DNA of 64,000 nucleotides from an uncultured Holophagae bacterium (GCA_963754985.1 CAVWIJ010000001.1:97035-161034), one strand, 5' to 3'. Numbered from the stretch's first letter, positions 2,998 to 52,903 are shown. Made by a program: numbers and translations. The notes: generated from the letters alone by a model not told the origin.

Positions 2998-5900
2998 TCA
3001 CTCCGCGGTCGACGGCGGCGAGAATCCGACCGCCACGTAGGTCGGGTCGCCGGTCACGTTGTCGACGATCGACAGGTACGCGCCGACCCGGCCGTCGCCG
3101 CCGAGGATCTCCACCTCCACTCTGCCGTTCTCCATCTGGCTGAGCCCGCCCAGAGCGTGCGGCATGTCGTTGATCTGGGTGTTCCCGTACGGCGGCAGGT
3201 CAATGGTTCTCGTCCCGGCGACCGCGCCGTGCTCATCCCACAGCGTCACTCGAACCTGCGCCTGCTCCCCCCACACCTCGCAGACGCCGAGGTTCGACCG
3301 GTAGGCCGGGGAGCGAACGATGCCGCCGACCGACTGCACCTGCTCACCGTCGGTCCGCATGACGTGATAGGGCGCCAGCGGTGGGATACCCTGGCCGTAG
3401 GAGCCTTCCTCGAGGCCGGGGGTCGAGGTCCGCGAGCTCACGATGATGTCGGTTCCCCGGATCTCGAGCGACCCTGCCCCGTTCGTACCGAAGACCGTTG
3501 CGACCACGTCTTCCCAGGTGGTGCTCGAGTGGGCGCCGAGCTCCAGGTCGGCGGCGAGGTAGTCGGTGGTGCCGTCCGACTCGCGCGGCGTGTAGAAGGC
3601 CTCGACCGTTTGCGGAGAGTCGACGAGGTTGAGCACCGTGAGTGTTGTGGTCCAGAAGGTGCCCTGCGCGCCGGGCGCGTTCGCAACAGCCGGGACGAAG
3701 TAGCTGTCCGTGGAGTGGACGCCGCGTACCGGTGGCGACGAGCCACCGGCGCCGGCCCGCAGCAGGATGTCGTCGACGTGCCAGCCGTCCGCGGTGATCG
3801 CCGAGTCGGTCTCGAGGCGGAAGCGGATCCGCGCCGCGGCCACCCCGTCGAGCTGGGGAAGGTCGATCGTCACGACCTCCCACATGGTGTGGTCCCGACC
3901 GGTGTAGCTCGCCACCGTCTCCCAGGTGGCGCCGTCGTCGGACGACACCTCGACGTAGCCGTAGTCAATGTAGTAGGTCTCGAGGTCGTAGATATGGGCA
4001 AACTCGAGCGTGGTGCCGGTCATCCCGCTGAGGTCGAGAGCCGGCGAGGTCAGCGAGACGTCGCGGTTGTTCCCGTAGTGGTAGGCTGGACTGTCGGTCC
4101 ACGAGTGGGTCGGGCTGGAGAACTCCTCGGTGGTGATAGCCCACGGCGACTGGGCAGTCCAGCCGATGTTGCCGCCCTCGACGTCGTCGAACAAAACCTG
4201 CTGGTAGGGGGCGAGCTGGAAGTCGAGCGGCGTGATCACGCCGGTGGTCGCCGAGACGTCCTCGGCGGTGAACGGCGCGTAGCCGTCGGCCACCGCGTTC
4301 ACGTCATAGGTCCCGGGCGGCAGCATCAGCTGGTAGCTGCCGTCGAGCGGGTCGGTCGCGGCGGAGAACGGGCCGGCGGTCACGATCGCCGCCAGTGGCT
4401 GCCCGTCCTCGGCGCTGCGGACGTCGCCGGCGAAGTGCGGCGCTGTGGCCGGATCGAGGATCCAGAACAAGACGGCGCTGGTCGGGCCCCAGGCGCCGGA
4501 CGCATCGCGCCCGGTGGCAAAGACGGTGTGGCGGCCGGTCGCGAGGCCGGTGGTGTCGATGGTGACGGTGGCCCACTCCTGGGAGGTGTCGAAGCTGCCG
4601 TCGGCGGGTGACATCGGCGTCGGGACTGCGCCGGCCTGCCACGGCGGGGCGTCGAGGTAGGCCGCAGCCTCGGTAATGTTCTGAACCGGCTCGGAGCCGT
4701 TGCTCTGGTTGAAGCGGCTGTCGTCGAGGCGCGCCCTGAACGTGACCGGTTCCCCGGGGGCGACCACGGTGATGCCGCCGAGGTCGACCTCGGTCGCGTC
4801 CGGGCCGCCAGGGGTGAGGTAGGGCGTGCGCGCGACCTTGGCCGCGTACCGGAGCGACTCGAGGTTGTCGGGCAGGATCGTCGCCTCGAAGCTGCCGCAG
4901 TCCTGGAAGAAGTCGGTCCCTAGCTCGAAGCCGTAGGCCGCCACGCCAAGGTCGCCGAACGCGAAGTCGGTGGTGTCGCCGTCGGTGGGGTAGAGGCCAA
5001 TGGACTGGTCGGGCGAGTAACCATTGAACCAGGCGAGGCGGCGGCCGAGGGTTTGCAGCGCGGCGTTGTTGGCGGTCTGGCTCGAGACAAATCCCCACGG
5101 CCACATCACGAGCTCGCCGTAGGAGTGAATGTCGAAGTAGACGCCGGTGGTGTCGGCCGGCGCCGGCGCCCCCAGGTCGGGCGCTCGCTGGTCGGGGAAG
5201 ATGGCACGGGCGTAGGCCTCGACCGCCTGCGTCTCGGGCTCCGAGGCCGCCGTCGCCCCGCGGTAGGTTTCATCGCAGGGGTTGGTGCTCGAGCCGCCGC
5301 AGCAGCCCCACTGGAACTCGAAATTGCGGTTGAGGTCGGCGCCCCGCGAGTCCGAGGTCGACCCGCAGTAGTTCTCGTTGGTGTTCTTGCGCCAGTACTC
5401 GCCGGTCTCGGCGTGCTTGCGTCCGTCCGGGTTGGTGTACAGCACGAGGTGGATCTCGTGCTCGTCGAGCAGCCAGGTGGCGTCGGCGTCCGTGCCGTGG
5501 CCGGCGAGCAGCTGCTCGGCAAAGCGCAGCATCAGCTCGGTGGTGGTGTACTCGCGGGCGTGGATCGCGGAGGTGACGAGCAGACGCGGCTTGCCGTGGG
5601 GCGGATCGGTTCCGGTGGGTGTCCCCGGGACCGCGCTGTTGGTGAGCTTGAGGACCATCATGTCGTAGCCGGGCAGGCCACCGGCCGTGGCCTTCTCCCA
5701 GGAATCGCCGATGTCGACCAACTGGGCGAGCTCCGGGTGGGCCGCGGCGAGGGCCTGGGCGTCGGCGAAGGTCTCCTCGACGGTGCGGTAGCACGGGTAG
5801 CCCGGGATGCCCTCGGTCTGTCCCTCCAGTCGCTTGAGTGGGGTGCACAGCCGGCTTGTCATGTGCTCGTCGATCTCGAGGGAGAGACCGGCGGCCATCA

Positions 5901-6108
5901 GCCGAGCGAAGCCGTCGGCGTCGACCCCGACCACCATGAAGCCCTCGTCGTAGCGCACCTCCCACGGCTCGGTCCATGCCGCCACCGCCGCCACCTGCGA
6001 GCGGTCGGAGAACCACGCCCGGACCACGGTCGGACAGTCGTCGGCGGCCGCCATCGAGTGCGTCGCGAAGGCCACCAGCGCTACAAAGACAGAGGTCGCG
6101 ACTCGCAT
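2998..6108 (-). CDS. secreted M14-family zinc carboxypeptidase with C-terminal accessory domains
   Basis: Signal peptide MRVATSVFVALVAFATHSMAA. M14 motifs HAREYTTTE (HxxE), NPDGR, DLNRNF and DIHSYGE. These are followed by a carboxypeptidase-regulatory-like segment, a MAM/immune-inhibitor-A-like segment (GYVEVSSDDGATWE) and a 234-aa C-terminal domain (3001-3702) that recurs elsewhere in the window. An RBS GGGAGG lies 5 nt upstream of ATG 6108; the track start 6114 is GTG. Confidence 0.9.
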   Translation of the reverse strand: MRVATSVFVALVAFATHSMAAADDCPTVVRAWFSDRSQVAAVAAWTEPWEVRYDEGFMVVGVDADGFARLMAAGLSLEIDEHMTSRLCTPLKRLEGQTEGIPGYPCYRTVEETFADAQALAAAHPELAQLVDIGDSWEKATAGGLPGYDMMVLKLTNSAVPGTPTGTDPPHGKPRLLVTSAIHAREYTTTELMLRFAEQLLAGHGTDADATWLLDEHEIHLVLYTNPDGRKHAETGEYWRKNTNENYCGSTSDSRGADLNRNFEFQWGCCGGSSTNPCDETYRGATAASEPETQAVEAYARAIFPDQRAPDLGAPAPADTTGVYFDIHSYGELVMWPWGFVSSQTANNAALQTLGRRLAWFNGYSPDQSIGLYPTDGDTTDFAFGDLGVAAYGFELGTDFFQDCGSFEATILPDNLESLRYAAKVARTPYLTPGGPDATEVDLGGITVVAPGEPVTFRARLDDSRFNQSNGSEPVQNITEAAAYLDAPPWQAGAVPTPMSPADGSFDTSQEWATVTIDTTGLATGRHTVFATGRDASGAWGPTSAVLFWILDPATAPHFAGDVRSAEDGQPLAAIVTAGPFSAATDPLDGSYQLMLPPGTYDVNAVADGYAPFTAEDVSATTGVITPLDFQLAPYQQVLFDDVEGGNIGWTAQSPWAITTEEFSSPTHSWTDSPAYHYGNNRDVSLTSPALDLSGMTGTTLEFAHIYDLETYYIDYGYVEVSSDDGATWETVASYTGRDHTMWEVVTIDLPQLDGVAAARIRFRLETDSAITADGWHVDDILLRAGAGGSSPPVRGVHSTDSYFVPAVANAPGAQGTFWTTTLTVLNLVDSPQTVEAFYTPRESDGTTDYLAADLELGAHSSTTWEDVVATVFGTNGAGSLEIRGTDIIVSSRTSTPGLEEGSYGQGIPPLAPYHVMRTDGEQVQSVGGIVRSPAYRSNLGVCEVWGEQAQVRVTLWDEHGAVAGTRTIDLPPYGNTQINDMPHALGGLSQMENGRVEVEILGGDGRVGAYLSIVDNVTGDPTYVAVGFSPPSTAE

Positions 6109-12440: not shown

Positions 12441-14009
12441 ATGGACCGCGACAAGGCGATCGAGTCAATCGCAGGCTATCGCGGCTACTGGGACGTCGTC
12501 ATCATCGGCGGCGGCGCCACCGGCCTCGGCACGGCGGTCGACGCGGCCGCCCGCGGCTACCGCACGCTGCTTCTCGAGCAGAGCGACTTCGCCAAGGGCA
12601 CCTCCAGCCGCAGCACCAAGCTCGTGCACGGCGGGGTGCGCTACCTCCGCCAGGGCAACGTCTCGCTGGTGCTCGAGGCGCTCCACGAGCGCGGGTTGCT
12701 GGCCCACAACGCCAGCCACCTGGTGCGCAACCAGTCGTTCATCGTACCGATCTACGACTGGTGGGAGGGGCCGTTCTACGGCATCGGCCTCAAGGTCTAC
12801 GACAAGCTCGCGGGCAAGCTCGGCATCGCGCCCTCGGAGAGCCTGTCGCGGGCGGAGACCCTGGCGCGCATCCCCAACCTCGAACCCAACGGCCTGCGCG
12901 GCGGGGTGATCTACTACGACGGGCAGTTCGACGACTCGCGGCTGGCCATCAACCTGGCGCAGACCGCGGCCGCGCACGGCGCGACGGTGGTCAACTACAT
13001 GCGGGTGACTGGGCTGCTCAAGACGGGCGGTACCGTGGCTGGGGTCGCCGCCGAGGACCGCGAGTCCGGCACGGAGCACGAGATTCGCGCCCGGGTCGTG
13101 GTCAATGCCACCGGCGTGTTCACCGACCAGATCCTGCGGATGGACGACCCCGGCGCTCCGCCCATGCTCACGCTCAGCCAGGGGACCCACCTCGTGCTGG
13201 GGCCGGAGTTCCTGCCCGGAGACACGGCGATCATGGTGCCCCAGACCACCGACGGCCGTGTGCTGTTCGCGGTGCCGTGGCACGGCAGGGTGGTGGTCGG
13301 CACGACCGACACGCCGGTGGCCGAGCCGAGCATGGAGCCGCGGGCGTTGCCCGAGGAGGTCGACTTCATCCTCGACAATGCCGCCGCCTACATGGCCAAG
13401 GACCCGACCCGCGCCGACGTGCTGAGCGTTTTCGCCGGCCTGCGACCGCTGGTCACGGCGGACGACGAGGACGCGACCGCCAAGCTGTCCCGCGACCACT
13501 CGGTGCACGTCTCCCACTCCGGCCTCGTCACGATCACCGGCGGCAAGTGGACGACCTACCGCCGGATGGCCAAGGACGTGGTCGACCAGGCGGCCATGGT
13601 GGCCGGCCTGGTAGAGCGCCCCTGCACCACCGAGAGCCTGCGCATCCATGGCTGGCTGAAGAACGTGGATGCCGCGGATCCGCTGTACGTGTACGGCACC
13701 GAGGCGCCGGCGGTGCGCGCCCTCGCCGAGGAACGGCGCTCGCTCGGACAGCTCCTCCACGAACGGCTGCCGGTGACCGCCGCCCAGGTGGTGTGGGCCG
13801 TGCGCCGCGAGATGGCGCGCACCGTGGAGGACGTGCTCGCCCGCCGGACCCGCGCGCTGCTGCTCGACGCCCGGGCGAGCATCGAGGCCGTGCCGGCCGT
13901 GGCCCGGATCATGGACCGCGAGCTCCACCGCGGCCGCACCTGGCAGAAGGCGCAGGTCGAGGCGTACACCGCGATCGCCCAGGGCTACGTCCTCGACAGC
14001 AAGGGCTGA
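12441..14009 (+). CDS. glpD: FAD-dependent glycerol-3-phosphate dehydrogenase/oxidase
   Basis: MDRDKAIESIAGYRGYWDVVIIGGGATGLGTAVDAAARGYRTLLLEQSDFAKGTSSRSTKLVHGGVRYL is a typical GlpD N-terminus. The C-terminal part contains ITGGKWTTYR. Alternative in-frame starts lie at 12390 and 12315. Confidence 0.85.
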   Translation: MDRDKAIESIAGYRGYWDVVIIGGGATGLGTAVDAAARGYRTLLLEQSDFAKGTSSRSTKLVHGGVRYLRQGNVSLVLEALHERGLLAHNASHLVRNQSFIVPIYDWWEGPFYGIGLKVYDKLAGKLGIAPSESLSRAETLARIPNLEPNGLRGGVIYYDGQFDDSRLAINLAQTAAAHGATVVNYMRVTGLLKTGGTVAGVAAEDRESGTEHEIRARVVVNATGVFTDQILRMDDPGAPPMLTLSQGTHLVLGPEFLPGDTAIMVPQTTDGRVLFAVPWHGRVVVGTTDTPVAEPSMEPRALPEEVDFILDNAAAYMAKDPTRADVLSVFAGLRPLVTADDEDATAKLSRDHSVHVSHSGLVTITGGKWTTYRRMAKDVVDQAAMVAGLVERPCTTESLRIHGWLKNVDAADPLYVYGTEAPAVRALAEERRSLGQLLHERLPVTAAQVVWAVRREMARTVEDVLARRTRALLLDARASIEAVPAVARIMDRELHRGRTWQKAQVEAYTAIAQGYVLDSKG

Positions 14010-17110: not shown

Positions 17111-17221
17111 GCTCGCCGAGGATACCAGACGACCGGGCGATCTCGACCACGTCGAATCGTATCGCGCGATCGGCAAGCCTGGTCTATCCTGACCGCAGGG
17201 CATGGGGAAGGAGCTCGGCGC

Positions 17222-18319
17222 ATGAGGCAGGTCTTCGAAGCCACCACCATCAACGGCCTGCGGCTCGCCAACCGGCTCGTCCGGTCGGCCACCTGGGAGG
17301 GTCTCGGCGACGCCGACGGGCGCGTCAACGAGGGCGTGATTGAGATCTACCGCCGGCTCGCCGAGGGCGGCGTCGGGCTGATCATCACGGGCTACCTCGC
17401 GGTGCGGTCGGACGGCCGCCAGCACACGACCCAGCTCAGCGTTGACCGCGACGAGCTTGTCCCGGGCCTCGCCGAGCTCGCGGCCGTGGTCCACAAACAC
17501 GGCGGCACGGTGGTCGGCCAGATCGTCCACTGCGGCGGCCAGGCTGTCCGCACAGCCAGCGGCGGCCAGGACCCCGTGGCCCCGAGCGCGGTGGCCAGCC
17601 CCGGCTACCCCGAGCTCCCGCGCGAGCTGTCGCTCGCCGGCATCCGCGAGCTCGTGGCCTGCTTCGCGGCGGCGGCCGGCCGCCTCCGCAACGCCGGCTT
17701 CGACGGGGTCCAGCTCCATGGCGCTCACGGCTATCTGCTGGCGCAGTTCCTGTCACCGTCGCGCAACCAGCGCACCGACGACTACGGCGGCAGTCTCGAC
17801 AACCGCTCTCGCTTCACCCTCGAGGTGCTGGCGGCGGTGCGCGCCGAGGTGGGCGCCGACTGGCCGGTGATGATCAAGCTCAACGCCCACGACTTCCTCG
17901 AAGGGTCGACCACCGAGCGCGACTCCTCCCACCTCGCCGCCGCCCTCGCCGAGGGCAGCATCGACGCCATCGAGGTCTCCGGCGGCACCGGTGGCTCGGG
18001 AAAGCTCGGCGCGGCTCGCCGCCACATCGAGACCGCCGAGGACGAGGCCTACTTCCTTCCCCAGGCCCGCGCGATCCGGGCGGCGGCCCCGGGCGTACCC
18101 CTGATGCTGGTCGGCGGCATGCGCTCGCTCGAGACGATCGAGGCCGTGCTCGCCTCGGGCGTCGCCGACTACATCGCCCTGGCGCGACCGCTGATCCGCG
18201 AGCCGGACCTGCCGGCGCGCTGGGCCTCCGGCGACCGCCGCCGCGCCGCCTGCGTGTCGTGCAGCGGGTGCTTTGCTCCGGCCGCCCGAGGCGAGGGCAT
18301 TCGCTGCGTCAACATCTAG
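17222..18319 (+). CDS. NADH:flavin oxidoreductase (Old Yellow Enzyme family)
   Basis: MRQVFEATTINGLRLANRLVRSATWEG followed by HGAHGYLLAQFLSPSRNQRTDDYGGSLDNRSRF, the OYE signature. The track ORF start at 16922 is an over-extension. Confidence 0.9.
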   Translation: MRQVFEATTINGLRLANRLVRSATWEGLGDADGRVNEGVIEIYRRLAEGGVGLIITGYLAVRSDGRQHTTQLSVDRDELVPGLAELAAVVHKHGGTVVGQIVHCGGQAVRTASGGQDPVAPSAVASPGYPELPRELSLAGIRELVACFAAAAGRLRNAGFDGVQLHGAHGYLLAQFLSPSRNQRTDDYGGSLDNRSRFTLEVLAAVRAEVGADWPVMIKLNAHDFLEGSTTERDSSHLAAALAEGSIDAIEVSGGTGGSGKLGAARRHIETAEDEAYFLPQARAIRAAAPGVPLMLVGGMRSLETIEAVLASGVADYIALARPLIREPDLPARWASGDRRRAACVSCSGCFAPAARGEGIRCVNI

Positions 18320-20899: not shown

Positions 20900-21166
20900 G
20901 ACGAAACTCCTGATCAGCGACCCTCATTGTCAGGTCGGCTGTTGATTCCGCACTTCGAGAACTTCGGCTCGGCTGCGGTCATTCCGCCCGCAACAGCAGG
21001 ACGCTCGCCGCATCGGTCTCCACCCCGCCCGTTCATCGCGCAGCTCGAGGCCGCCTGCCGAGCCGCCAGACCCGCCGCCGCCCGCGAACATCGCTGACCT
21101 GATCTCCAACAAATTTCTGATACGAATTCTCAGGAATGAACCTCGCCGGGCGCTGTTCTACGGTGT

Positions 21167-24100
21167 ATGCCAGGTATCAACATCGGTCGGCCGCTCCTCG
21201 GCGCCGGCGCGGCAGCGAAGAATGACTGGGCATCGGCGAGCGCGCGCACCGGCCTCGACTTCACTGCACAGGCGGAGTTCAGGCGCGGGGTCAACCTCAC
21301 GATCGGGCTCGAAGCGCTCGCGTCGGCCGACGCAGGGCTGTCCCGCTTCATCTCCGGCACTGTCCGCGGCAACGCCTTTGCCGCGGCCGAGGCGAGCCTC
21401 CAGATCGGGCTTCCCCTGAACCTGTTCAAGCGCTTCGGCCTCGCCGTCGGCGCGGAGGCGAAAGCCCAGGCGGCCGCCGGCATCGAGGCCGGCCTCGCTC
21501 TCTCGATCGGCGACTTCGTCGAGCTCGTGCGCCGTGACCCGGACGCGGTCGGCGTTCCGCTCGAGCTGATCCTCCTGATGCTCGAGGAGGTCGATGCCGG
21601 CGGCAAGGTCGAGATCCACGTTGCGGCGGCGGCGATGGCCTACGCGTCGCTGCAGATCGCGGGATCGGTCATCGACACCCCGGGGAAGCCGGCCGGCTTC
21701 GAGTACACGATCGACGCCGGCCTCGGCCTCGCGGCTGGAATGGGCTTCAGCGGCGGGCTGCTGCTCGGCTTCAAGGACTTCCGACACTTCTACGGACGGG
21801 CCGTCGACCTCGCCGTGGGAACCACGGTCGCTCAGGTGGCATCGTCGCTGCCAGCCGCCGACGCCGCGACGCAGGCGCTCGCGAGCGCTTTCGCCCCGGT
21901 CGCCAAGATCGCTCTCAGGAGCGCATACGAGATCGGCAGCTTCATCGAGGTCAACGCGCCGGACGGCTCGGCCCAGGCCTCGCTCTCGCTCGCCAACCAC
22001 TGCGTGGGCGTCGTCCTCGAGGAGTCGCAGCGTTACCTGCTGGACCGTTTCGTCGAGTCCGGCCTGCGGGCCATTCTCGACGCGCTGAGGGCGCAATCCA
22101 CAGGCATGAGTACACGCGCGTGGAACACGCTGCGGCCGCAGCGTCTTGCGCTGGCGCAGGCCCTCTACTCGGTCCCGCCGGAGCCCTTCCAGTCCACACC
22201 CGAGAACGCGGCGTTCTGGCGGCGGATTCAGCAGCGGGTCGCGACCCTCGTCGATGCCCTCCCGGCGAACTCGCCGGCGCGGGACCAGATCATGCAGGGG
22301 CTCGCGTGTGTCTCGGCGGCCGCCGAGCTGCTGACAGAGATGTTCCGCAGCCGGATCAACCAGGCGCAGGCCTACGTGGTGGCGGTCGGGGTAGGCCGGA
22401 TCGCGACCAGGCCGGCCTTCGGAGGGCCACTGCCAAGCCAGCCCCCCGTCCGAGTCAGGAGCTTCATCAACGCGGCGCTCGGCCTCGCCGCGTCGGCCGA
22501 CCTCGACACCGCAGCCCTCGCACGCTTCCTCGGTCAGCCGGCGACGCTCGACGCGCTGCGTAGCTCGTGCCCGGATGTCAACGAGTTTGCCAGGATCTTC
22601 CGTGGACCGGTCGCGGCTCTCGAGGTCGAGGTGCTCTCGGCGCTGCTCGCGAACCGTGAGGCCTTCCTCCCCAACGCAGCCGGCGACATCGACCCGAAGG
22701 AGACGCTCGCCGTCCTCCTCGAAGCCCTCGACGCCTTCATCGCCAGCCGGCTCAACGTCGAGCTCAGGCAGGCCTTCTACCAGACCAACCCCGACCCTGC
22801 CACCCGGCTCTACTTCGACGAGGTCCTGCTCGGCGCCATCAACTTCACGAAGGACGTCGCGTTTCAGACGATCCTTAACTGGGAGACGCGGCAGCCCGAC
22901 CGGGACAGCTTCACCGAGGCGCTGGCGAGCGTCCTCACGATGATGCTCGGCCGCAGCCTGGTCATCGTCGGCGACCTCTTCTTCAACGCGCTGCTCGAGA
23001 ATGTCCAGGACGCCGCCGAGCACGCCTCGTCGCGGCTGTCCGGCAGCCGGGACCCGTTCCGGGCGATCGGAATCGCGACCAGCCCGGAGCTGCGCGCGCT
23101 CTTCGCCGACACCCTGCGGATCGGCGGCGAGGTCTTCGGCCCGCTGCCCAGCGACACGCGATCGCGCGTCCGCCAGATCCTGTACGAGATCATGGAGCCA
23201 CTGCCGCCAACCGGACAGCAGGACTTCGTCGACGAGCTCGCTGACCAGTTCTTCATTCCCAACCGCGAGCACCTCGCCGAGCTCAGCGAGGAGCTCCTGG
23301 AGATCTCACGCGACCGTTTCGGACTGTTCGTCGAGAAGGTCCTGCAGAGCGCCGGCCAGTTGCTCCTTGACGCCATCGTCGAGTTCATCGACCAGGCGAT
23401 CCAGACCATCAAGGACTGGGAGCGGCGGCTCGGCGCGGCGATCGCCGACCTCGCGCGGCTCATCCAGGAGCTCGAGCGGGAGATTGCCCGTCTCGTCGAG
23501 CAGGTCGAGGCAGCGTTCAGCGAGGCGGCTGCTGCGATCGATCAGCTGCTCGACACACTGCGCAGCAACAGCGCGCGCGCCGCGCTCAAGGCGAAGATCG
23601 TCTCCGTGCTTTACTCCCGCGCCAAGTCCGTGCTGCGGGACAACGAGCTCTACAAGGCGCTGCCGCGCGAGCTCCGCAGCGCCGTCAGATCGCTGCTCAA
23701 GGACAGCATCCGCGGCCTGGTCGACAACCCGCTCGTCGATCCCGTCCTCGATGCTGTGACCGCCGTCGGCAGCGAGCTCGAGACGCTGGTCGACGACGTC
23801 CGCGACCTCGACCCGTCGCGCCCGCTCTCCGAGCAGCTCCTCGATCTGGTAATCGATCGGATCGAGGACGGCATCCGGGACCACTTCGGCTCGAGCGACC
23901 CTCGGATCGACATCGGCTTCACCTTCAGCTATGAGCTCTTTGGCCACCACAGCGTGCGCTTCGAGCTCGGGCGGGTGCGGATCCCGATGTCGAGCTTCCT
24001 GGGCGCGCTTCGCGACGCGATCGACGACATCGGGGCTTTTGACAGCGCCCTGACCGACGCGGCCGAGCGGGTCGCCGCGGCCTTCGAGAAGTTGCTCGAG

Positions 24101-25006
24101 CTCCAGGACATGGAGTCGGAGCGCGCCGCCGCCCGCGCCTCGCGGGAGCGGCTCACCCGGATCGAGCGCGAGCACACCAGCAACCCGAAGGAGATTGCCA
24201 TCCTCTCGCCGGCGCCGAGCTCGGTCCACAGTGGGAGCGTCCCGGTGGAGATCCACCTCGGCGGGGTGCCGCTGTCGTACCTCGGCCTGGACCGGGACGA
24301 GCAGCAGCGGGTCTTCATCTTCCTCAACGGCGAGCTCATCCCGAGCAAGTCGCTGGTGGTCGGTCGAGCCGCCGGCGCCGCCGACAGGGAGCTTCATCGG
24401 CTCGACTTCACGCTCACCGGGCTGGCTGGCTTTGACGCAGCGGCCCAGAAGTTCGAGGGCAGCGACGCGACCATCCGCATCCGCGGCGGCGTTCCAGCCG
24501 GCGATGTCGAGGCAGTCGCGTTGAACCGAACCGGTGCGGTCCACGTCGGACGCCACACCGTCTCGAAGGGGCGCGGTGGGCGCTCGATGACGTCGTCGGT
24601 GGTGGCCAATTTCCCGCCCGGACACACGCTCGCCGGCTCGCAGATCGCCGGCCTCCGGTCCGCCCTGCCGGCCGGGACCGAGATCTCGTTCGACCTGGGC
24701 CTCTCAGAGCTCGTGCAGGGCGCGAATACGCTCACGGTGGTCGTGATCGACCGTGGCGGCCGCCAGTACCAGCAGGTGGTGAGCTTCGGCGTCGCGGCGC
24801 CGCCTCGCCTGCGGGCGGATGACCTCCGTCCGAGGCTGCCTAGTGGGGTCGGGCGAGCCTCCGGCCGCGGGCGAGGTCGTCCGGTCAAACCGCCGGTCGG
24901 GATCTCGGCTGCCGCAGCCGACGTTCGCGCCCGCCTTCGAAAGGCCTCCTCGTACCTCGACAGCCAAGCCAGGCTGAATCTGACCGACTTCACGAGGGGC
25001 AAATGA
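21167..25006 (+). CDS. large (1279 aa) protein of unknown function, Ala/Gly-rich N-terminal repeats plus long helical/coiled-coil body
   Basis: An uninterrupted 3.8-kb ORF preceded by an AT-richer stretch (21100-21165). No signal peptide and no motif I can assign. An internal ~85-aa duplication is marked by EASLQIGL...GIEAGLALSIGDF and YASLQIAG...TIDAGLGLAAGMGF. A coiled-coil-like segment reads IKDWERRLGAAIADLARLIQELEREIARLVEQVEAAF. Confidence 0.8.
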   Translation: MPGINIGRPLLGAGAAAKNDWASASARTGLDFTAQAEFRRGVNLTIGLEALASADAGLSRFISGTVRGNAFAAAEASLQIGLPLNLFKRFGLAVGAEAKAQAAAGIEAGLALSIGDFVELVRRDPDAVGVPLELILLMLEEVDAGGKVEIHVAAAAMAYASLQIAGSVIDTPGKPAGFEYTIDAGLGLAAGMGFSGGLLLGFKDFRHFYGRAVDLAVGTTVAQVASSLPAADAATQALASAFAPVAKIALRSAYEIGSFIEVNAPDGSAQASLSLANHCVGVVLEESQRYLLDRFVESGLRAILDALRAQSTGMSTRAWNTLRPQRLALAQALYSVPPEPFQSTPENAAFWRRIQQRVATLVDALPANSPARDQIMQGLACVSAAAELLTEMFRSRINQAQAYVVAVGVGRIATRPAFGGPLPSQPPVRVRSFINAALGLAASADLDTAALARFLGQPATLDALRSSCPDVNEFARIFRGPVAALEVEVLSALLANREAFLPNAAGDIDPKETLAVLLEALDAFIASRLNVELRQAFYQTNPDPATRLYFDEVLLGAINFTKDVAFQTILNWETRQPDRDSFTEALASVLTMMLGRSLVIVGDLFFNALLENVQDAAEHASSRLSGSRDPFRAIGIATSPELRALFADTLRIGGEVFGPLPSDTRSRVRQILYEIMEPLPPTGQQDFVDELADQFFIPNREHLAELSEELLEISRDRFGLFVEKVLQSAGQLLLDAIVEFIDQAIQTIKDWERRLGAAIADLARLIQELEREIARLVEQVEAAFSEAAAAIDQLLDTLRSNSARAALKAKIVSVLYSRAKSVLRDNELYKALPRELRSAVRSLLKDSIRGLVDNPLVDPVLDAVTAVGSELETLVDDVRDLDPSRPLSEQLLDLVIDRIEDGIRDHFGSSDPRIDIGFTFSYELFGHHSVRFELGRVRIPMSSFLGALRDAIDDIGAFDSALTDAAERVAAAFEKLLELQDMESERAAARASRERLTRIEREHTSNPKEIAILSPAPSSVHSGSVPVEIHLGGVPLSYLGLDRDEQQRVFIFLNGELIPSKSLVVGRAAGAADRELHRLDFTLTGLAGFDAAAQKFEGSDATIRIRGGVPAGDVEAVALNRTGAVHVGRHTVSKGRGGRSMTSSVVANFPPGHTLAGSQIAGLRSALPAGTEISFDLGLSELVQGANTLTVVVIDRGGRQYQQVVSFGVAAPPRLRADDLRPRLPSGVGRASGRGRGRPVKPPVGISAAAADVRARLRKASSYLDSQARLNLTDFTRGK

Positions 25007-25725
25007 ACACTCCTCTGCAGCTGGCTGCCTTCACGCTTGCCGACTTCCTATCGGAAGACCCGGGCGTTGCGCCGTTCCGCGCCGTCGCCTTCGTGCTCGG
25101 CAAGCGCGGTCACCGCAACGCCGGCCTCGATCCCAGGACCGCTGCGCGGATGCACGCCCGCAGCCTGAAGTGGGCCAGGCGCACGAACGACAAGCTCCGG
25201 ATCCAGAGGCGCCTCGACTACGATCCGCTCGAGGTGGTCGAGATCAACAGCTTCGACGAGCTCATCGCCAAGCGCCCCCGCTCCGGAACCTGGCAGAGCA
25301 TCTTCCTCGTGACCCACGCCGGTGGCGAGCTTCCTCAGGGCATGGCGGGCTCGATCTTCTTCGGTGACCGCGAGCTCTTCATCACCGGTTCCGGGATCAA
25401 CGACCTTCTCGACGAGATCAACCGGAAGAAGGCGAGGGTCGAGGAGTTTCGTCGAGGGTTCGACCAAAGCTCCCGACTGCAGATCTTCGCCTGCGGCGTG
25501 GGGTCGACGGGTCCGGAGGTCGCCATCTACACGAGAGAGCTCTTCGGAGTCGAAGGGGCAGCCCACTTTCCGCGAGTCGACGTCGATCTCCTCGCGAACG
25601 GAACGCTCGTCACGCCGGACGAGGACGATCCACGGCTGCTGCGTGAGCTTGCCGTCGCCGACATGAGCACCATCCCTCCCAAGGAGGAGGCCCTCCCAGA
25701 GGACGCCGAGGTGCGGCCCCCCTGA
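25003..25725 (+). CDS. 240-aa protein of unknown function, translationally coupled to the 1279-aa protein
   Basis: Its ATG overlaps the upstream stop (ATGA at 25003-25006). The segment IFLVTHAGGELPQGMAGSIFFGDRELFITG...LQIFACGVGSTGPEVAIYTRELFGVEG resembles the DUF4347-type layout (xHGxxGxLxLG...GCxxG), but weakly and by eye only. Confidence 0.7.
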   Translation: MNTPLQLAAFTLADFLSEDPGVAPFRAVAFVLGKRGHRNAGLDPRTAARMHARSLKWARRTNDKLRIQRRLDYDPLEVVEINSFDELIAKRPRSGTWQSIFLVTHAGGELPQGMAGSIFFGDRELFITGSGINDLLDEINRKKARVEEFRRGFDQSSRLQIFACGVGSTGPEVAIYTRELFGVEGAAHFPRVDVDLLANGTLVTPDEDDPRLLRELAVADMSTIPPKEEALPEDAEVRPP

Positions 25726-25910
25726 CCCTCGCCCCCGTCTCGCACCGCCACGATCCACGCACCATCGGGTGCCACGGGCAGCGGGGAACCTGGCGGCAGC
25801 AGGGAGGCCGCAGCACCGGCAGCCTCCCGCTTCAGGCGCGCGGGCGTCCCCTCGCAGCCCCACGGCTCCTGGCGTATGCTGGCTGCCAGCTCCCTGCAAT
25901 GGAGGTCTTG

Positions 25911-27131
25911 ATGTCACGCTGCAGGCTTCTCACGCTGGCCTCGCTCCTCTTGGTGTCCGCGGCCGCCACCCCGTCGCCGGCCGATCAGGTCAACCTCCTC
26001 TCGATCCAGGAAGGCACCTTCCCGGTCGTCGAGCCGGAGAGCTACGGTGGCTGGCCGGTCGTGGCCCTGCTCGACGACAGCCCGGAGACCGGCTGGGCCT
26101 GCCCGGAGGGCAAGATCGCCGACAACGTGTTCGTGTTCGAGATGGCGGCGGAGGCGACCATCGAGCGCTTCGAGTTCGACGCGAAGGGCGTGGACGAGGA
26201 GGGCGCCGGGGCGAAGGAGGTCGTGGTCGAGGTCTCGACCACCTCCAAGAGCGACGGCTTCACGCCGGTCCTCCAGGCGACGCTGGCGGCCGGGCGCGAC
26301 CGCCAGGCCTTCGACGCGGCGAAGCCGGTGCCGGCGCGCTGGGTGCGGCTGACCATCCGCACGAACCACGGCAACGAGGGCTGGACCGAGCTGTTCGGCT
26401 TCCGGGGCTACGGGGAACGGCCGGCCACCGGCGCCCTCGCCGAGGGCATCTCCGGCACCTACGCGACCGACTACAACGACTTCCACGTCCGCCAGCAGGG
26501 CACCGCGCTGGTCGGCTGCTACGAGTACGACTTCGGCGTGCTGGACGGCGCCATCGAGGGCCGGGTCATGAAGATCACCTGGCGGGAGCGGGAGGATGGC
26601 AGCGAGCGCGGGCCGGCCGTGATGGTCTTCTCGCCGGACGGCAAGTCCTTCCGCGGCTTCTGGTGGCACGCCGGCAACGAGGCCCGCCTCCCCAACGGCG
26701 AGTGGAACGGCACCAAGACGTCGGCCGCCATCGGCACCTGCCCGCACTGGGCGGGCTCGGTGAGCGGAGAGCTCACGAAGACCCTGTCGTCGACCGGGCG
26801 CGCGCGGGTCTACGGCATCCTCTTCGACCTCGACTCGGCGACCATCCGGCCGGCGTCGAAGCCCGTCCTCGACGAGGTCGCGGCCTCGCTCGAGAGCCAG
26901 CCGGACTGGCGGCTCACGATCGAGGGCCACACCGACTCGACCGGCAGCGCGGAGCACAACCGGGTGCTGTCGCAGCAGCGCGCCGACGCCGTCAAGGCCT
27001 TCCTGGTGGCCGCCGGGATCGATGCCGCGCGCCTGCAGACAGCTGGCTTCGGAGCGTCGCAGCCGGTGGCCGACAACGCCACCGAGCTCGGCCGCAGCCA
27101 GAACCGCCGGGTCGAGCTGGTGCGAAACTAG
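25911..27131 (+). CDS. OmpA-family protein with N-terminal discoidin (F5/8 type C)-like domain
   Basis: Signal peptide MSRCRLLTLASLLLVSAAA (RBS GGAGG 5 nt upstream; the track start is 25899). The C-terminal OmpA_C motif reads FDLDSATIRPASKPVLDEVAASL...LTIEGHTDSTGSAEHNRVLSQQRADAV...NRRVELV. Confidence 0.88.
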   Translation: MSRCRLLTLASLLLVSAAATPSPADQVNLLSIQEGTFPVVEPESYGGWPVVALLDDSPETGWACPEGKIADNVFVFEMAAEATIERFEFDAKGVDEEGAGAKEVVVEVSTTSKSDGFTPVLQATLAAGRDRQAFDAAKPVPARWVRLTIRTNHGNEGWTELFGFRGYGERPATGALAEGISGTYATDYNDFHVRQQGTALVGCYEYDFGVLDGAIEGRVMKITWREREDGSERGPAVMVFSPDGKSFRGFWWHAGNEARLPNGEWNGTKTSAAIGTCPHWAGSVSGELTKTLSSTGRARVYGILFDLDSATIRPASKPVLDEVAASLESQPDWRLTIEGHTDSTGSAEHNRVLSQQRADAVKAFLVAAGIDAARLQTAGFGASQPVADNATELGRSQNRRVELVRN

Positions 27132-50365: not shown

Positions 50366-51861
50366 ATGGCAGTGGAGTCGATGCGCCACACAGCTGCGAT
50401 GTTCCTCGGACTCGCGATCTGCGGCGCTGCCAGCCTGGAAGGCTACGAACGGTACAGCCAGAACGACGACGCCACCTGGTGCCGGGAGTGTCACGGCGAC
50501 TTCCGGGCCACGAACTATGTGTCGCTGGTTGACGGACTTCCCTGGGGCAACCTCCACAACGTGCATCGCTCGACCATGCTCGGCAGTGACTGCGAGGCCT
50601 GCCACATCGGCAGCTCGCGACTGCCGGTCTACCTCGACCAGTCGACCGGTGGCATCGGACTCGAGCCCGTATCGTGTGTCGGCTGCCATGGCGTCAACCC
50701 GTCGCCGGGCAATCCGAGCACGGGCCTGTGGGGAGCCGGCCTGCGCGCTCACCACACCAACGCCGGGGTCGGTCCCGACTCCGACGGGCTTCGCTGCCTG
50801 GACTGCCACAGCAACGATCCGCCGCCGCCGCCCGAGAACGTGCCCCCGTCATACTACTTCTCACCCGACCCGGCCCATCCGAGCAAGCCGACCAACCCCT
50901 GCAACCCGGCGCCGGGGTTCCCGGAGCACTATGCCGCGAGTGTGATCGGCCTCGATAACGACGGCGACCTGCTCTACGACGAGGTCGATCTGAGCTGTGC
51001 GGCAGTACCGACCAGCACGCCGACACCGACCTCCGTGCCTCCCCCGACGAGCACGCCCACCAGAACTCCGACGGCAACGGTAACACCCACCCCGACCGTC
51101 ACGCCGACGGCGACCCGCACCGCAACCACAACTCCGAGCGCGACCACGACCAGCACGCCGACTCGAACTCCCACGAGCACCCCAACGAGCACGGCGACGG
51201 CGACGGCGACGGCGACCCGACGCTCGACACGCCGACGCCGACACCAACCAGAACGCCAACGAGCACGTCCACGAACACCGCCACCGCAACGGCGACGCCG
51301 AGCGCGACCACGACCTCGACGCCGACCCGAACGCCAACGAACAGCGCGACCAGCACCCAGACCAGCACACCCACACCGACGCCGACGACAACCCCGACGA
51401 GCACCCCGACCGCGACGGCGCCGCCGGGCGCCACGCCGACCCATACGCCGACCAACACGCCGACCCGAACGCCAACCAACACAGCGACCGGCACCCCGAC
51501 CAGCACGCCGACTCGAACACCAACGAGCACCCCCACGAGCACCGCGACCGCGACGCCGAGCTCGACGCCGACCAGCACACCGACTCACACCCCCACTTCG
51601 ACGGCGACGAGCACACCGACGCGGACCCCGACCGCATCGGCAACCCCGAGCCCGTCGCCGACCGGCACGGCCACGCCGACACCATCCCCCACCAACACAT
51701 CGACCCCGACGACGACCCCGCCGTCGCCCACGGTCACTTCGACTCCGACCGCCACACCGACTCCTGGCCCACCGCTGATCTTCAGCGACGGCTTCGAGTC
51801 CGGGGATCTTTCGGCGTGGAGCGAGGGCCACACCCTCAGGGTTTTGAGGATCACGGGATGA
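50366..51861 (+). CDS. secreted tetraheme c-type cytochrome with ~255-aa Pro/Thr linker and conserved C-terminal tail (copy 1); one frame disruption near 51215
   Basis: Signal peptide [26 protein letters not shown]. Four CxxCH motifs (WCRECH, CEACH, CVGCH, CLDCH) and a DNDGD motif. The PT-rich linker continues in the -1 frame after (ACGGCG)4 at 51191-51214. The true end is [30 protein letters not shown], with the stop at 51859-51861. The Arg/Pro-rich tail of track ORF 50348..51778 is an out-of-frame reading. Confidence 0.85.
51005..51772 (+). repeat. Pro/Thr-codon low-complexity coding repeat (linker of cytochrome copy 1)
   Basis: A continuous run of ACN/CCN codons ([27 protein letters not shown]...), including a perfect (ACGGCG)4. 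Confidence 0.85.
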
Positions 51862-51970
51862 CCGGGATCGTCCTCGGTGCATCGCGCGCGCCGCGTCGGC
51901 CGCACGGCACGGGCGGCGAAGCGCGGTCCGCCGGTCAACCACCTCGTTTCATCGAGAAAGTGAGGCTGCC

Positions 51971-52903
51971 ATGAGAGTATTTCGTTTGAACGCCGCCGCG
52001 GCGGCGCTGCTCGCCGTTGCGATCACCGGCGTCACCACCGTGCACGGCTACGAGCGGTACAGCCAGAACGACGACGCCACCTGGTGCCGGGCGTGCCACG
52101 GCGACTTCCGGGCCGACAACTACGTGTCGCTGTCCGACGGGCAGCCGTGGGGCAACCTCCACGAGGTCCACCGATCCACGATGCTCAGCGGGGACTGCGA
52201 CGCCTGTCACATCGGGAGCTCGCGGTTGCCGGTGTACCTCGATCAGTCCACCGGCGGCGACGGGCTGGAGCCCAAGTCCTGCGTCGGCTGCCACGGCGCC
52301 AACCCTTCACCGGGCAACCCGAGCACGGGCCTGTGGGGAGCCGGGCTCAGGGCTCACCACGCCAACGCCGGGATCGCCAGCTGCGCGACCTGCCACTCCG
52401 GCGACCCGACCCCGCCGGCCGAGAACGTGCTCCCGTCGTACTACTTCTCGCCCGACCCGGCCCATCCGAGCAAGCCGACGGATCCCTGCAACCCGGCACC
52501 CGGCTTTCCGGAGCACTATGCGGCCAGCGTGATCGGCCTCGACAACGACGGCGACCTGGTCTACGACGAGGCCGACCCGAACTGCGGGGTGCCTCCCACC
52601 GCGACGCCGACGAGAACGCCGACCCGCACACCGACGCCCACTGCGACCAGGACGCCGACCGCGACGCCGACCGGCCCGCCGACCTTCACGCCGACCCCAA
52701 CACCGACGCCCACGGCAACCGGCACGCCGCCCCCACCGACCTTCACGCCGACCCGGACCGCAACCCCGACCGTGACGCCGACCCCGACCCCTGATCCGGA
52801 CCTGCTGTTCGGGGATGGCTTCGAGTCCGGCGACATCTCGGCGTGGAGTGGTGGAGTGAAGGCCGCCGCCGTGGCGGCGGCGGGGGACGCCAATCCGCTC
52901 TGA
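51971..52903 (+). CDS. secreted tetraheme c-type cytochrome with ~70-aa Pro/Thr linker and conserved C-terminal tail (copy 2)
   Basis: Signal peptide [26 protein letters not shown]. Four CxxCH motifs (WCRACH, CDACH, CVGCH, CATCH) and DNDGD. The PT linker is at 52589-52798, followed by [18 protein letters not shown]. About 80% identical to copy 1 over the heme domain, by eye. Confidence 0.9.
52589..52798 (+). repeat. Pro/Thr-codon low-complexity coding repeat (linker of cytochrome copy 2)
   Basis: [67 protein letters not shown]. Confidence 0.85.

Follow-up and report, generated by a model that had tools for sequence, protein, structure and literature searches.

The 64,000-nucleotide stretch of DNA from an uncultured Holophagae bacterium that was analysed here (GCA_963754985.1 CAVWIJ010000001.1:97035-161034), referred to below as the window, contains two adjacent genes, A and B, that constitute a translationally coupled and uncharacterised two-gene unit. 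As shown in Table 1, which also lists the genes found in the place of B in homologous loci, the two genes overlap by four nucleotides (ATGA), the ATG of B at 25003-25005 running into the TGA of A at 25004-25006. The sequence around the junction reads ...GAGGGGCAAATGAACA; GAGGGGCAAATGA.

Table 1. Features of genes A and B in window coordinates, and classes of downstream partner genes by locus (L numbers denote loci with A homologues). ORF, open reading frame; CPD, cysteine protease domain; pLDDT, predicted local distance difference test; LTD, Lamin Tail Domain.
Feature	Position or loci	Strand	Basis or remark
Gene A	21167..25006	+	ATG start; 1279 aa; constant component of an unannotated family; ORF intact
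Gene B	25003..25725	+	ATG start; 240 aa; partner with predicted clan CD (caspase/CPD-like) cysteine protease fold; ORF intact
Coupling junction	24994..25006	+	Shine-Dalgarno-like GAGGGG at 24994-24999, then ATGA; read directly from the sequence
AT-richer leader upstream of A	21095..21166	+	Likely promoter/5' untranslated region; GC below flanks
A residues 1-205, Ala/Gly-rich β-hairpin domain	21167..21781	+	Model strands; invariant AxAxAxA; highest conservation in A
A residues 206-1005, all-helical body	21782..24181	+	AlphaFold2 model, pLDDT mostly 70-94
A residues 700-798, ~100-residue helix in body	23264-23560	+	AlphaFold2 model
A residues 1009-1209, conserved β-sandwich	24191..24793	+	Model strands; kept in all subfamilies including LTD-type
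A residues 1210-1247, Pro/Arg/Gly-rich linker, probably disordered, variable length	24794..24907	+	P+R+G = 0.35
A residues 1248-1275, terminal amphipathic helix AAAADVRARLRKASSYLDSQARLNLTDF	24908..24991	+	Kept in tail-type homologues, any partner family
B residues 3-17, N-terminal amphipathic helix TPLQLAAFTLADFLS, putative docking motif	25009..25053	+	
B His105 codon (VTHAGG), putative catalytic His	25315..25317	+	Invariant in 19/19 sequences; C-terminal end of model strand 97-106
B Cys164 codon (FACGVG), putative catalytic Cys	25492..25494	+	18/19 sequences; C-terminal end of model strand 153-164
Partner: B-type clan CD	window, L001, L011, L019/L020 (4 loci)		Fold model and alignment
Partner: DUF4056	L002/L003		Pfam E 5.6e-26
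Partner: Beta-lactamase2-like, conserved SxxK	L004, L013		Library match and motif
Partner: papain-like Q-x5-C...H...WG motifs	L012, L015		Motif evidence only
Partner: HExxH protein	L007		Motif only
Partner: OmpA-domain protein	L018 (9669-10712)	+	
Partner: four unassigned families	L008, L010, L014, L016/L017		

The GC content at codon positions 1/2/3 is 0.71/0.47/0.89 in A and 0.68/0.46/0.84 in B, and neighbouring genes are alike. Since the composition at the second and third positions is that of the host and each gene has many homologues, A and B are real genes and not chance high-GC ORFs. Long ORFs turn up by chance in 70% GC DNA, and a 704-aa ORF that runs antisense to A (21158-23272, minus strand) is typical of these; ORF length alone is therefore no evidence in this window. 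The leader of A has a GC content of 48.5% over 21100-21165 and 41% over 21095-21145, compared with approximately 68-69% in the flanks. A search of this leader for a σ70 consensus found none, nor were any RNA elements found in the window. No transmembrane-like segment is present in A (maximum Kyte-Doolittle value over 19 residues, KD19, of 1.61) or in B, and neither protein has an N-terminus that resembles a signal peptide.

An AlphaFold2 model of A was obtained for residues 1-1200 with a pLDDT of 78. The strands of the N-terminal domain were placed at residues 4-18, 22-38, 41-58, 64-81, 89-108, 142-167, 177-187 and 191-202. Over residues 1-205, alanine and glycine make up 34% of the sequence and the pattern [AG]x[AG]x[AG]x[AG] occurs in 8 overlapping matches where 2.4 are expected; in a test of this period-2 arrangement, 75 of 5000 shuffles reached 8 matches. 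The N-terminal 225 residues are also the most conserved part of the A family, and their Ala/Gly columns are invariant. The long helical body that follows is interrupted in the model by a β-hairpin at residues 913-938. Conservation in the β-sandwich is concentrated in the stretches IAILSP...IHLGGVP...RVFIFLNG...GANTLTVVVIDRGG..YQQVVSFGV. The linker and the terminal helix were defined from a comparison of the C-terminal tails of 45 A homologues. Within the otherwise variable linker, a (R/K)LPxxPG-like motif is kept whatever the family of the partner, with its RLP at residues 1223-1225 of A (24833-24841); this motif may serve in processing or recognition.

A word search with A identified 46 homologues, with full-length matches at E = 0 for identities down to 31%. 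An exhaustive hidden Markov model (HMM) search of 1.84 billion representatives, clustered at 50% identity, extended the family to 488 cluster representatives, 264 of them at E <= 1e-30 and nearly all 1000-1600 aa in length. The common layout is an Ala/Gly β-hairpin N-terminal domain, a helical body of about 800 aa, a β-sandwich, a disordered linker and a terminal helix. A distant subfamily keeps the first three of these and has a Lamin Tail Domain (50-65 bits) in place of the linker and helix; the A protein of the window itself has no Pfam match to this domain (PF00932). Searches of A against Pfam, NCBIfam and PADLOC produced only low-complexity and coiled-coil noise, the PADLOC matches being of coiled-coil level (LeoA, E 4e-4 over 80 residues), and a profile search of PDB sequences found nothing meaningful. 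No significant match was obtained by Foldseek against the PDB and BFVD (best PDB E 0.07, TM-score < 0.1), and there was no gasdermin or other pore-former among the PDB matches. The ABC transporters and tape-measure proteins among the matches are long-helix noise with TM-scores below 0.1. A is a large new family without a detectable relative among characterised proteins. In one homologous locus (L004:10001-13835), the A homologue is split: a 1066-aa call is followed by the rest of the C-terminal part, which lies in a different frame (tblastn 13365-13826). The cause is a sequencing error or else a frameshift in a pseudogene.

Much of the above had been anticipated by an earlier, sequence-only reading of the window. 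Its two intact ORFs of 1279 and 240 aa with an ATGA overlap lie exactly where it placed them, the AT-richer leader and the absence of signal peptides were confirmed, and A was rightly said to have no known motif, given that neither the curated families nor the PDB provided a match. The Ala/Gly-rich N-terminus, helical body and β-rich C-terminal part that it described for A were recovered by the composition test and the model, the last of these at about residues 1009-1209.

For B, 18 homologues were found. The protein has no curated match in Pfam, NCBIfam or PADLOC; at E <= 1, Pfam and NCBIfam returned only noise, and a resemblance to DUF4347 that had been suggested from the sequence was not borne out by any Pfam match to that family at this threshold. 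A profile search of PDB sequences was also without a match. The AlphaFold2 model, built on an alignment of 19 sequences, scored well (pLDDT = 83.9, predicted TM-score = 0.81), and its top Foldseek matches in the PDB were almost all clan CD proteases with E values of 1e-4 to 1e-2 and probabilities of 0.9-1.0. The best of these were the MARTX CPD structures of V. cholerae (3eeb, 3gcd and 3fzy; E ~1e-4, probability 1.0), followed by the TcdB CPD (3pee), the Craspase CHAT domain (7xsq and 8d9h) and caspase-9 (1jxq), although the TM-scores against clan CD structures are modest at 0.43-0.53.

In clan CD proteases, the catalytic His comes before the Cys, and both residues cap core strands at their C-terminal ends with a Gly next in sequence. 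From the model and alignment of B, His105 and Cys164 are separated by 59 residues, and they end consecutive core strands and are each followed by Gly. Thus, B shares the His-then-Cys order of the C80 CPDs, the CHAT domain of Craspase Csx29 and the C14 caspases, and it is best described as having a predicted clan CD (caspase/CPD-like) cysteine protease fold with a plausible catalytic dyad; B is presumably catalytically active. Since no significant match to family sequence profiles was obtained, whether in Pfam, NCBIfam or the PDB, B represents a new sequence family within this fold. It differs from the known members in having an extra N-terminal helix, and from the C80 and CHAT proteins in being a standalone protein of 240 aa instead of a domain in a giant toxin or a TPR-CHAT fusion. 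The lone exception to Cys164 in the alignment is P0065, a garbled fusion of 368 aa from a 48.9-kb ENA contig, in which the C-terminal β-sandwich and tail of an A homologue are joined to a B homologue in a single ORF. The stretch around its Cys motif is scrambled; P0065 is probably a frameshift or assembly artefact, but could be a natural A-B fusion.

The genes downstream of A were surveyed in 16 distinct loci with readable DNA after an A homologue. In 16/16, a gene on the same strand begins between -4 and +118 nt from the A stop codon; the four-nucleotide ATGA-type overlap is present in half of the loci (8/16), and the remaining gaps are 2-118 nt. These partners belong to about 10 families that have no BLASTP connection between them (Table 1), and they are without signal peptides. 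The same four-nucleotide overlap joins A to a B-type gene in L001, L011 and L019/L020, and several further pairs of A and B homologues are found on contigs of equal size. DUF4056, the partner in L002/L003, corresponds to CapCone-DUF4056 of the Lipocone superfamily and shares its clade with TelC, a lipid II phosphatase toxin (bioRxiv 10.1101/2025.01.14.632903). The 271-aa partner in L010 was considered as a relative of B because of its YHG...SCLGG motifs; this homology is unsupported (hhalign E 0.23).

An exception to the pairing of B-type genes with A is found in L005, where the gene upstream of the B homologue is unrelated to A. Here (L005:7646-10789), a 262-aa B homologue with 48% identity begins 30 nt after a 774-aa protein that has no Pfam match and contains GYQRGELLSSFSITPGGEV. 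This raises the possibility that B-type proteases have another family of large partners besides A. Taken with the approximately 10 partner families of A, this locus indicates that the A-B pairing is not one fixed between two families.

Though the partner families are unrelated, most of them share an N-terminal amphipathic helix with the approximate motif φ-x-φ-A-φ-x-L-A-x-F-L-x-G. When a position-specific scoring matrix (PSSM) of this helix was constructed with one family left out at a time, 7/7 families ranked within the top 0-2% of 835 background N-termini. A scan of ORF N-termini from all loci placed the 12 training partners on top, and the motif was always N-terminal; as this ranking arises by construction, independent support comes only from the leave-one-family-out test. 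In the monomer model of B, the helix has a low pLDDT (47), a value that would at least be in keeping with a segment folding only when it binds a partner. The L005 homologue of B lacks the helix and, from this single case, the motif appears to track partnership with A.

The verdict from these loci is that the conserved unit consists of A plus a helix-tagged, swappable enzyme. The sequence-only reading had proposed a probable stoichiometric partnership of the two proteins. The recurrence of the overlap with a B-type gene in other loci agrees with this proposal, whereas the other partner families and L005 do not, and the co-occurrence on which it placed weight holds in one respect and fails in another: A is always accompanied by a partner and the family of that partner varies. 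The profile and structure searches that it recommended found no homology for A and, through Foldseek, clan CD folds for B. Its statement that function could not be deduced was too cautious for B, since the nature of B can be deduced from the clan CD fold and the His/Cys pair.

With a probability of roughly 0.45, A serves as a constant scaffold on which interchangeable effector enzymes dock, forming a module for inter-organismal or anti-invader conflict. The scaffold would be large and non-enzymatic, comprising the β-hairpin N-terminal domain, the long helical body, the β-sandwich and the flexible tail. The downstream enzyme would be recruited to A by its short N-terminal amphipathic helix and would have been swapped repeatedly in evolution. 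In the window, this enzyme would be the standalone protease B, acting through His105/Cys164 and produced in step with A through translational coupling. The role of the module may lie in toxin delivery or in abortive infection, with A holding, positioning or releasing the effector, and the β-hairpin domain may be its membrane-active or oligomerising part. The analysis establishes the gene structure, its conservation, the fold and conserved dyad of B, the variety of partners and the N-terminal motif common to most partner families, whereas the physical docking of the partner, catalytic activity, the membrane activity of A and the role in conflict are inferred. The patchy distribution and varied contexts of the family fit a mobile conflict module.

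Several of the effector types would have the cell envelope as their target. This is suggested by partners that resemble a lipid II phosphatase or a penicillin-binding protein (PBP)/β-lactamase, or that carry a peptidoglycan-binding domain; that A provides access or control is suggested by the absence of signal peptides from the partners together with the conserved amphipathic β-hairpin domain of A. Both suggestions are speculative. A still more specific proposal, which should be regarded as improbable, is that the hairpin domain oligomerises into a membrane-breaching assembly that carries or releases the helix-docked, signal-peptide-less and envelope-directed enzyme. Such an assembly would be a new route by which toxins are delivered or infected cells lyse themselves, and it would rely on none of the known secretion systems, holins or gasdermins.

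The organisational logic of the module matches that of known core-plus-effector conflict systems, while the components differ. The EAD-coupled and EACC1-caspase conflict systems pair a constant 5' component with a 3' caspase-superfamily peptidase or another swappable effector (PMC7159879), and short non-enzymatic adaptor elements are proposed to provide the link between effector and core (Kaur, Burroughs, Iyer, Aravind 2020, eLife; PMC7159879). The A-B module resembles these in its constant core and swappable effector, a caspase-like one included. An identity of A with EACC1 was rejected, EACC1 being a small protein with a single transmembrane segment whereas A is 1279 aa, soluble-looking and without such a segment. 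The EADs are small homotypic domains present in both core and effector; in the present module there is a helix of about 12-15 residues with no copy in A, and a homotypic, EAD-like adaptor was rejected for this reason. Moreover, no NTPase, vWA-MoxR or STAND component belongs to the A-B module.

There is also a likeness to polymorphic and Lipocone toxins, as the partner repertoire (TelC-clade DUF4056, papain-like, β-lactamase/DD-peptidase-like and metallopeptidase-like) resembles the envelope-directed domains that are shuffled among them. Some of those toxins are without signal peptides and immunity genes, and novel trafficking modules have been proposed for them (bioRxiv 10.1101/2025.01.14.632903). 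In contrast, the variable enzyme is here a separate gene and not a C-terminal tip, no conserved immunity gene was seen, and PAAR, LXG, Rhs, VENN and other secretion-linked domains were not found in A with Pfam and NCBIfam. CapCone-DUF4056 is not among the listed polymorphic toxin tips (bioRxiv 10.1101/2025.01.14.632903). An identity with the "Broken-hairpin" trafficking domain was rejected, as that domain is short and is found fused to toxins at the C-terminal side.

In bacterial gasdermin operons, a protease encoded next to a pore-forming protein, be it caspase-like or of another type, activates that protein. The window is similar in that a gene for a large protein with putative membrane-active hairpins adjoins that of a caspase-fold protease, and in that the type of protease varies among members. 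A nevertheless has no detectable gasdermin fold and is about four times larger, and its hairpin-rich region is at the N-terminus and lined with alanine. The partners are small proteins with no sensor or repeat domains, and in several loci they are non-proteases. The cargo peptides of microcompartments and encapsulins offer a further parallel, as a short terminal amphipathic helix plus linker targets unrelated enzymes to one structural protein. The partners of A likewise place a terminal amphipathic helix on unrelated enzymes in the company of one conserved large protein; however, no BMC-domain or HK97-fold shell protein is present, the architecture of A is unrelated, and nothing suggests a closed shell.

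A number of observations weigh against the scaffold-and-effector reading. The model of the N-terminal domain of A is of low confidence (pLDDT < 60 for residues 1-110), and alanine-lined strands are atypical of strands that face lipid. The helix motif of the window's own B is weak (rank 47/835), held-out partners from the LTD-type subfamily scored only modestly (L016p 23/984, L018p 17/984 and L017p 84/984), and the motif did not score in L007p (205/984). The PSSM identified no consistent copy of the partner helix inside 13 A-family proteins. Docking on the C-terminal helix of A was rejected as well: it predicted that LTD-type relatives would be without helix-bearing partners, and they have them. 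The PDB sequence searches for three partner families were negative, and the papain-like and HExxH classes rest on motifs. No conserved immunity-like gene was seen downstream of the partners in the examined loci, PADLOC gave no significant defence-system match for A, B and 10 partners, and no phage or plasmid relatives of A were found in IMG/VR pattern scans, INPHARED and PLSDB. Finally, the sequence-only reading had suggested a check for homologues in defence islands or secretion loci; the window has an ordinary chromosomal context and is neither of these, and toxin-antitoxin pairs and transposases occur near some of the other loci.

The main alternative, judged unlikely, is that B is a maturation protease that cleaves A in a gasdermin-like manner, for example in the linker at (R/K)LP, so that an autoinhibitory C-terminal piece would be released and the N-terminal domain would oligomerise or insert into the membrane. 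The CPDs of MARTX and TcdB (family C80) are autoprocessing proteases that cut after Leu, and such an activity would suit both the caspase/CPD-like fold and conserved dyad of B and the (R/K)LPxxPG motif, which stands in an otherwise variable linker ahead of a conserved terminal helix. Translational coupling would suit the joint production of an enzyme and its substrate, and several of the other partners resemble peptidases (papain-like motifs, HExxH, a β-lactamase/DD-peptidase fold), as does the product of an HExxH gene directly upstream of the A homologue in L017. Cleavage by B is difficult to reconcile, however, with the non-protease partners in homologous operons, namely the Lipocone DUF4056, the OmpA-domain protein and several unassigned families. 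The linker motif is kept regardless of the type of partner and is therefore not a B-specific site, LTD-type relatives have partners despite having no linker or tail, and A has no fold similarity to gasdermins or other pore-formers.

Two further explanations are less likely than a maturation protease. A could be a housekeeping scaffold of the cytoskeleton or envelope, lamin-like in outline, that recruits the producer's own wall- or envelope-remodelling enzymes, in which case differences between partners would reflect the envelope chemistry of each lineage. The long helical body with its 100-residue helix, the C-terminal β-sandwich and the true Lamin Tail Domain that ends a distant subfamily agree with this, as do native codon usage, the ordinary chromosomal context and partners that touch peptidoglycan or lipid II chemistry (SxxK β-lactamase-like, OmpA domain, TelC-clade Lipocone). 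This explanation is nonetheless doubtful: rarity and a patchy phyletic distribution are not what an essential scaffold would show, the lack of signal peptides would keep the partners from reaching the wall by standard routes, and their rapid swapping among unrelated enzyme families is instead typical of conflict systems. The neighbourhoods are not conserved either, and include toxin-antitoxin modules and transposases. Very improbable is a stoichiometric pair in which a large toxin, A, is matched by B as the immunity or antitoxin protein specific to it. Such a pair would be expected to show close translational coupling between a large gene and a small one, no signal peptides and a patchy distribution, but B retains a His/Cys pair in a protease fold and other partners retain SxxK, HExxH and DUF4056 motifs, unlike inert immunity proteins. 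The conservation of A while the partner family changes is the opposite of toxin-tip/immunity co-variation, and A has no recognisable toxin domain.

If the constant-core and swappable-effector reading is true, a sizeable unannotated family (approximately 500 clusters at 50% identity from several phyla) joins the conflict modules, and an N-terminal helix of about 15 residues is offered as a targeting rule. With B, the proteases of caspase/CPD fold gain a new sequence family. Several orphan enzyme families, DUF4056 among them, are tied to one context, which could help in the assignment of their function. Should the reading be wrong, the A family is still large, conserved and structurally unusual, and in need of an explanation.

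The A family is patchily distributed, and the named sources of its members include Verrucomicrobiia, Casimicrobiaceae, Alcaligenaceae, Bacteroidaceae, Halioglobus and Bacillota metagenome-assembled genomes; scans of metagenomes and GTDB with Ala-rich patterns for the family identified at least two and at least five loci, respectively. The genes that flank the module in one locus are unrelated to those in another, and several loci have toxin-antitoxin pairs or transposases close by; the module therefore stands on its own and is linked neither to a secretion system nor to a recognised defence island. The toxin-antitoxin pairs (DUF433/DUF5615, PhdYeFM/PIN and RHH/PIN) are located at L002:6567-6938 and 17127-17728, L003:3629-4359 and L004:7935-8521, and, for those genomes only, they hint at a variable or defence-type region. 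Also near the module in L002/L003 are an HTH-AAA_16-TPR regulator and an AAA_5/VWA pair.

Additional genes accompany the module in two of the LTD-type loci. In L016 (11272-13806), a gene for a patatin-like phospholipase with DUF3376 (844 aa) follows the 502-aa partner by 26 nt on the same strand and is a possible third component or second effector. The A homologue of L017 is preceded on its own strand, at a distance of 30 nt, by a 248-aa gene (5224-5970) whose product has a zincin-like HEYGH motif and, at its N-terminus, an amphipathic helix, VLIEALSGLLAQLKGG; genes of the effector kind may thus be found on either side of A. Genes for PF00144 β-lactamase/PBP-like proteins are found a few kb from A in three unrelated loci (L002:15914-17041, L004:15557-16831 and L017:777-1892).

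The sequence-only reading had described many genes of the window as carrying frame breaks. A GC3-based map of the window, derived from GC content at third codon positions, comprises mostly long, intact genes, among them those for an M14 carboxypeptidase, a molybdopterin oxidoreductase, a glycerol-3-phosphate oxidase-type enzyme, a permease, a Ser/Thr kinase-PD40 protein and a DEAD helicase. A secreted protein with F5/8-type-C and OmpA domains is encoded 174 nt downstream of B (25899-27131, plus strand). Peptidoglycan-binding domains of the OmpA type recur near the module in L001 (15938-16828, minus strand) and in the L018 partner itself, which may be a coincidence. Elsewhere in the window, positions 51001-52000 have a GC skew of -0.26 and an AT skew of +0.51, values that are far outside those of the remaining window and suggest a strand-biased repeat or a low-complexity coding stretch.

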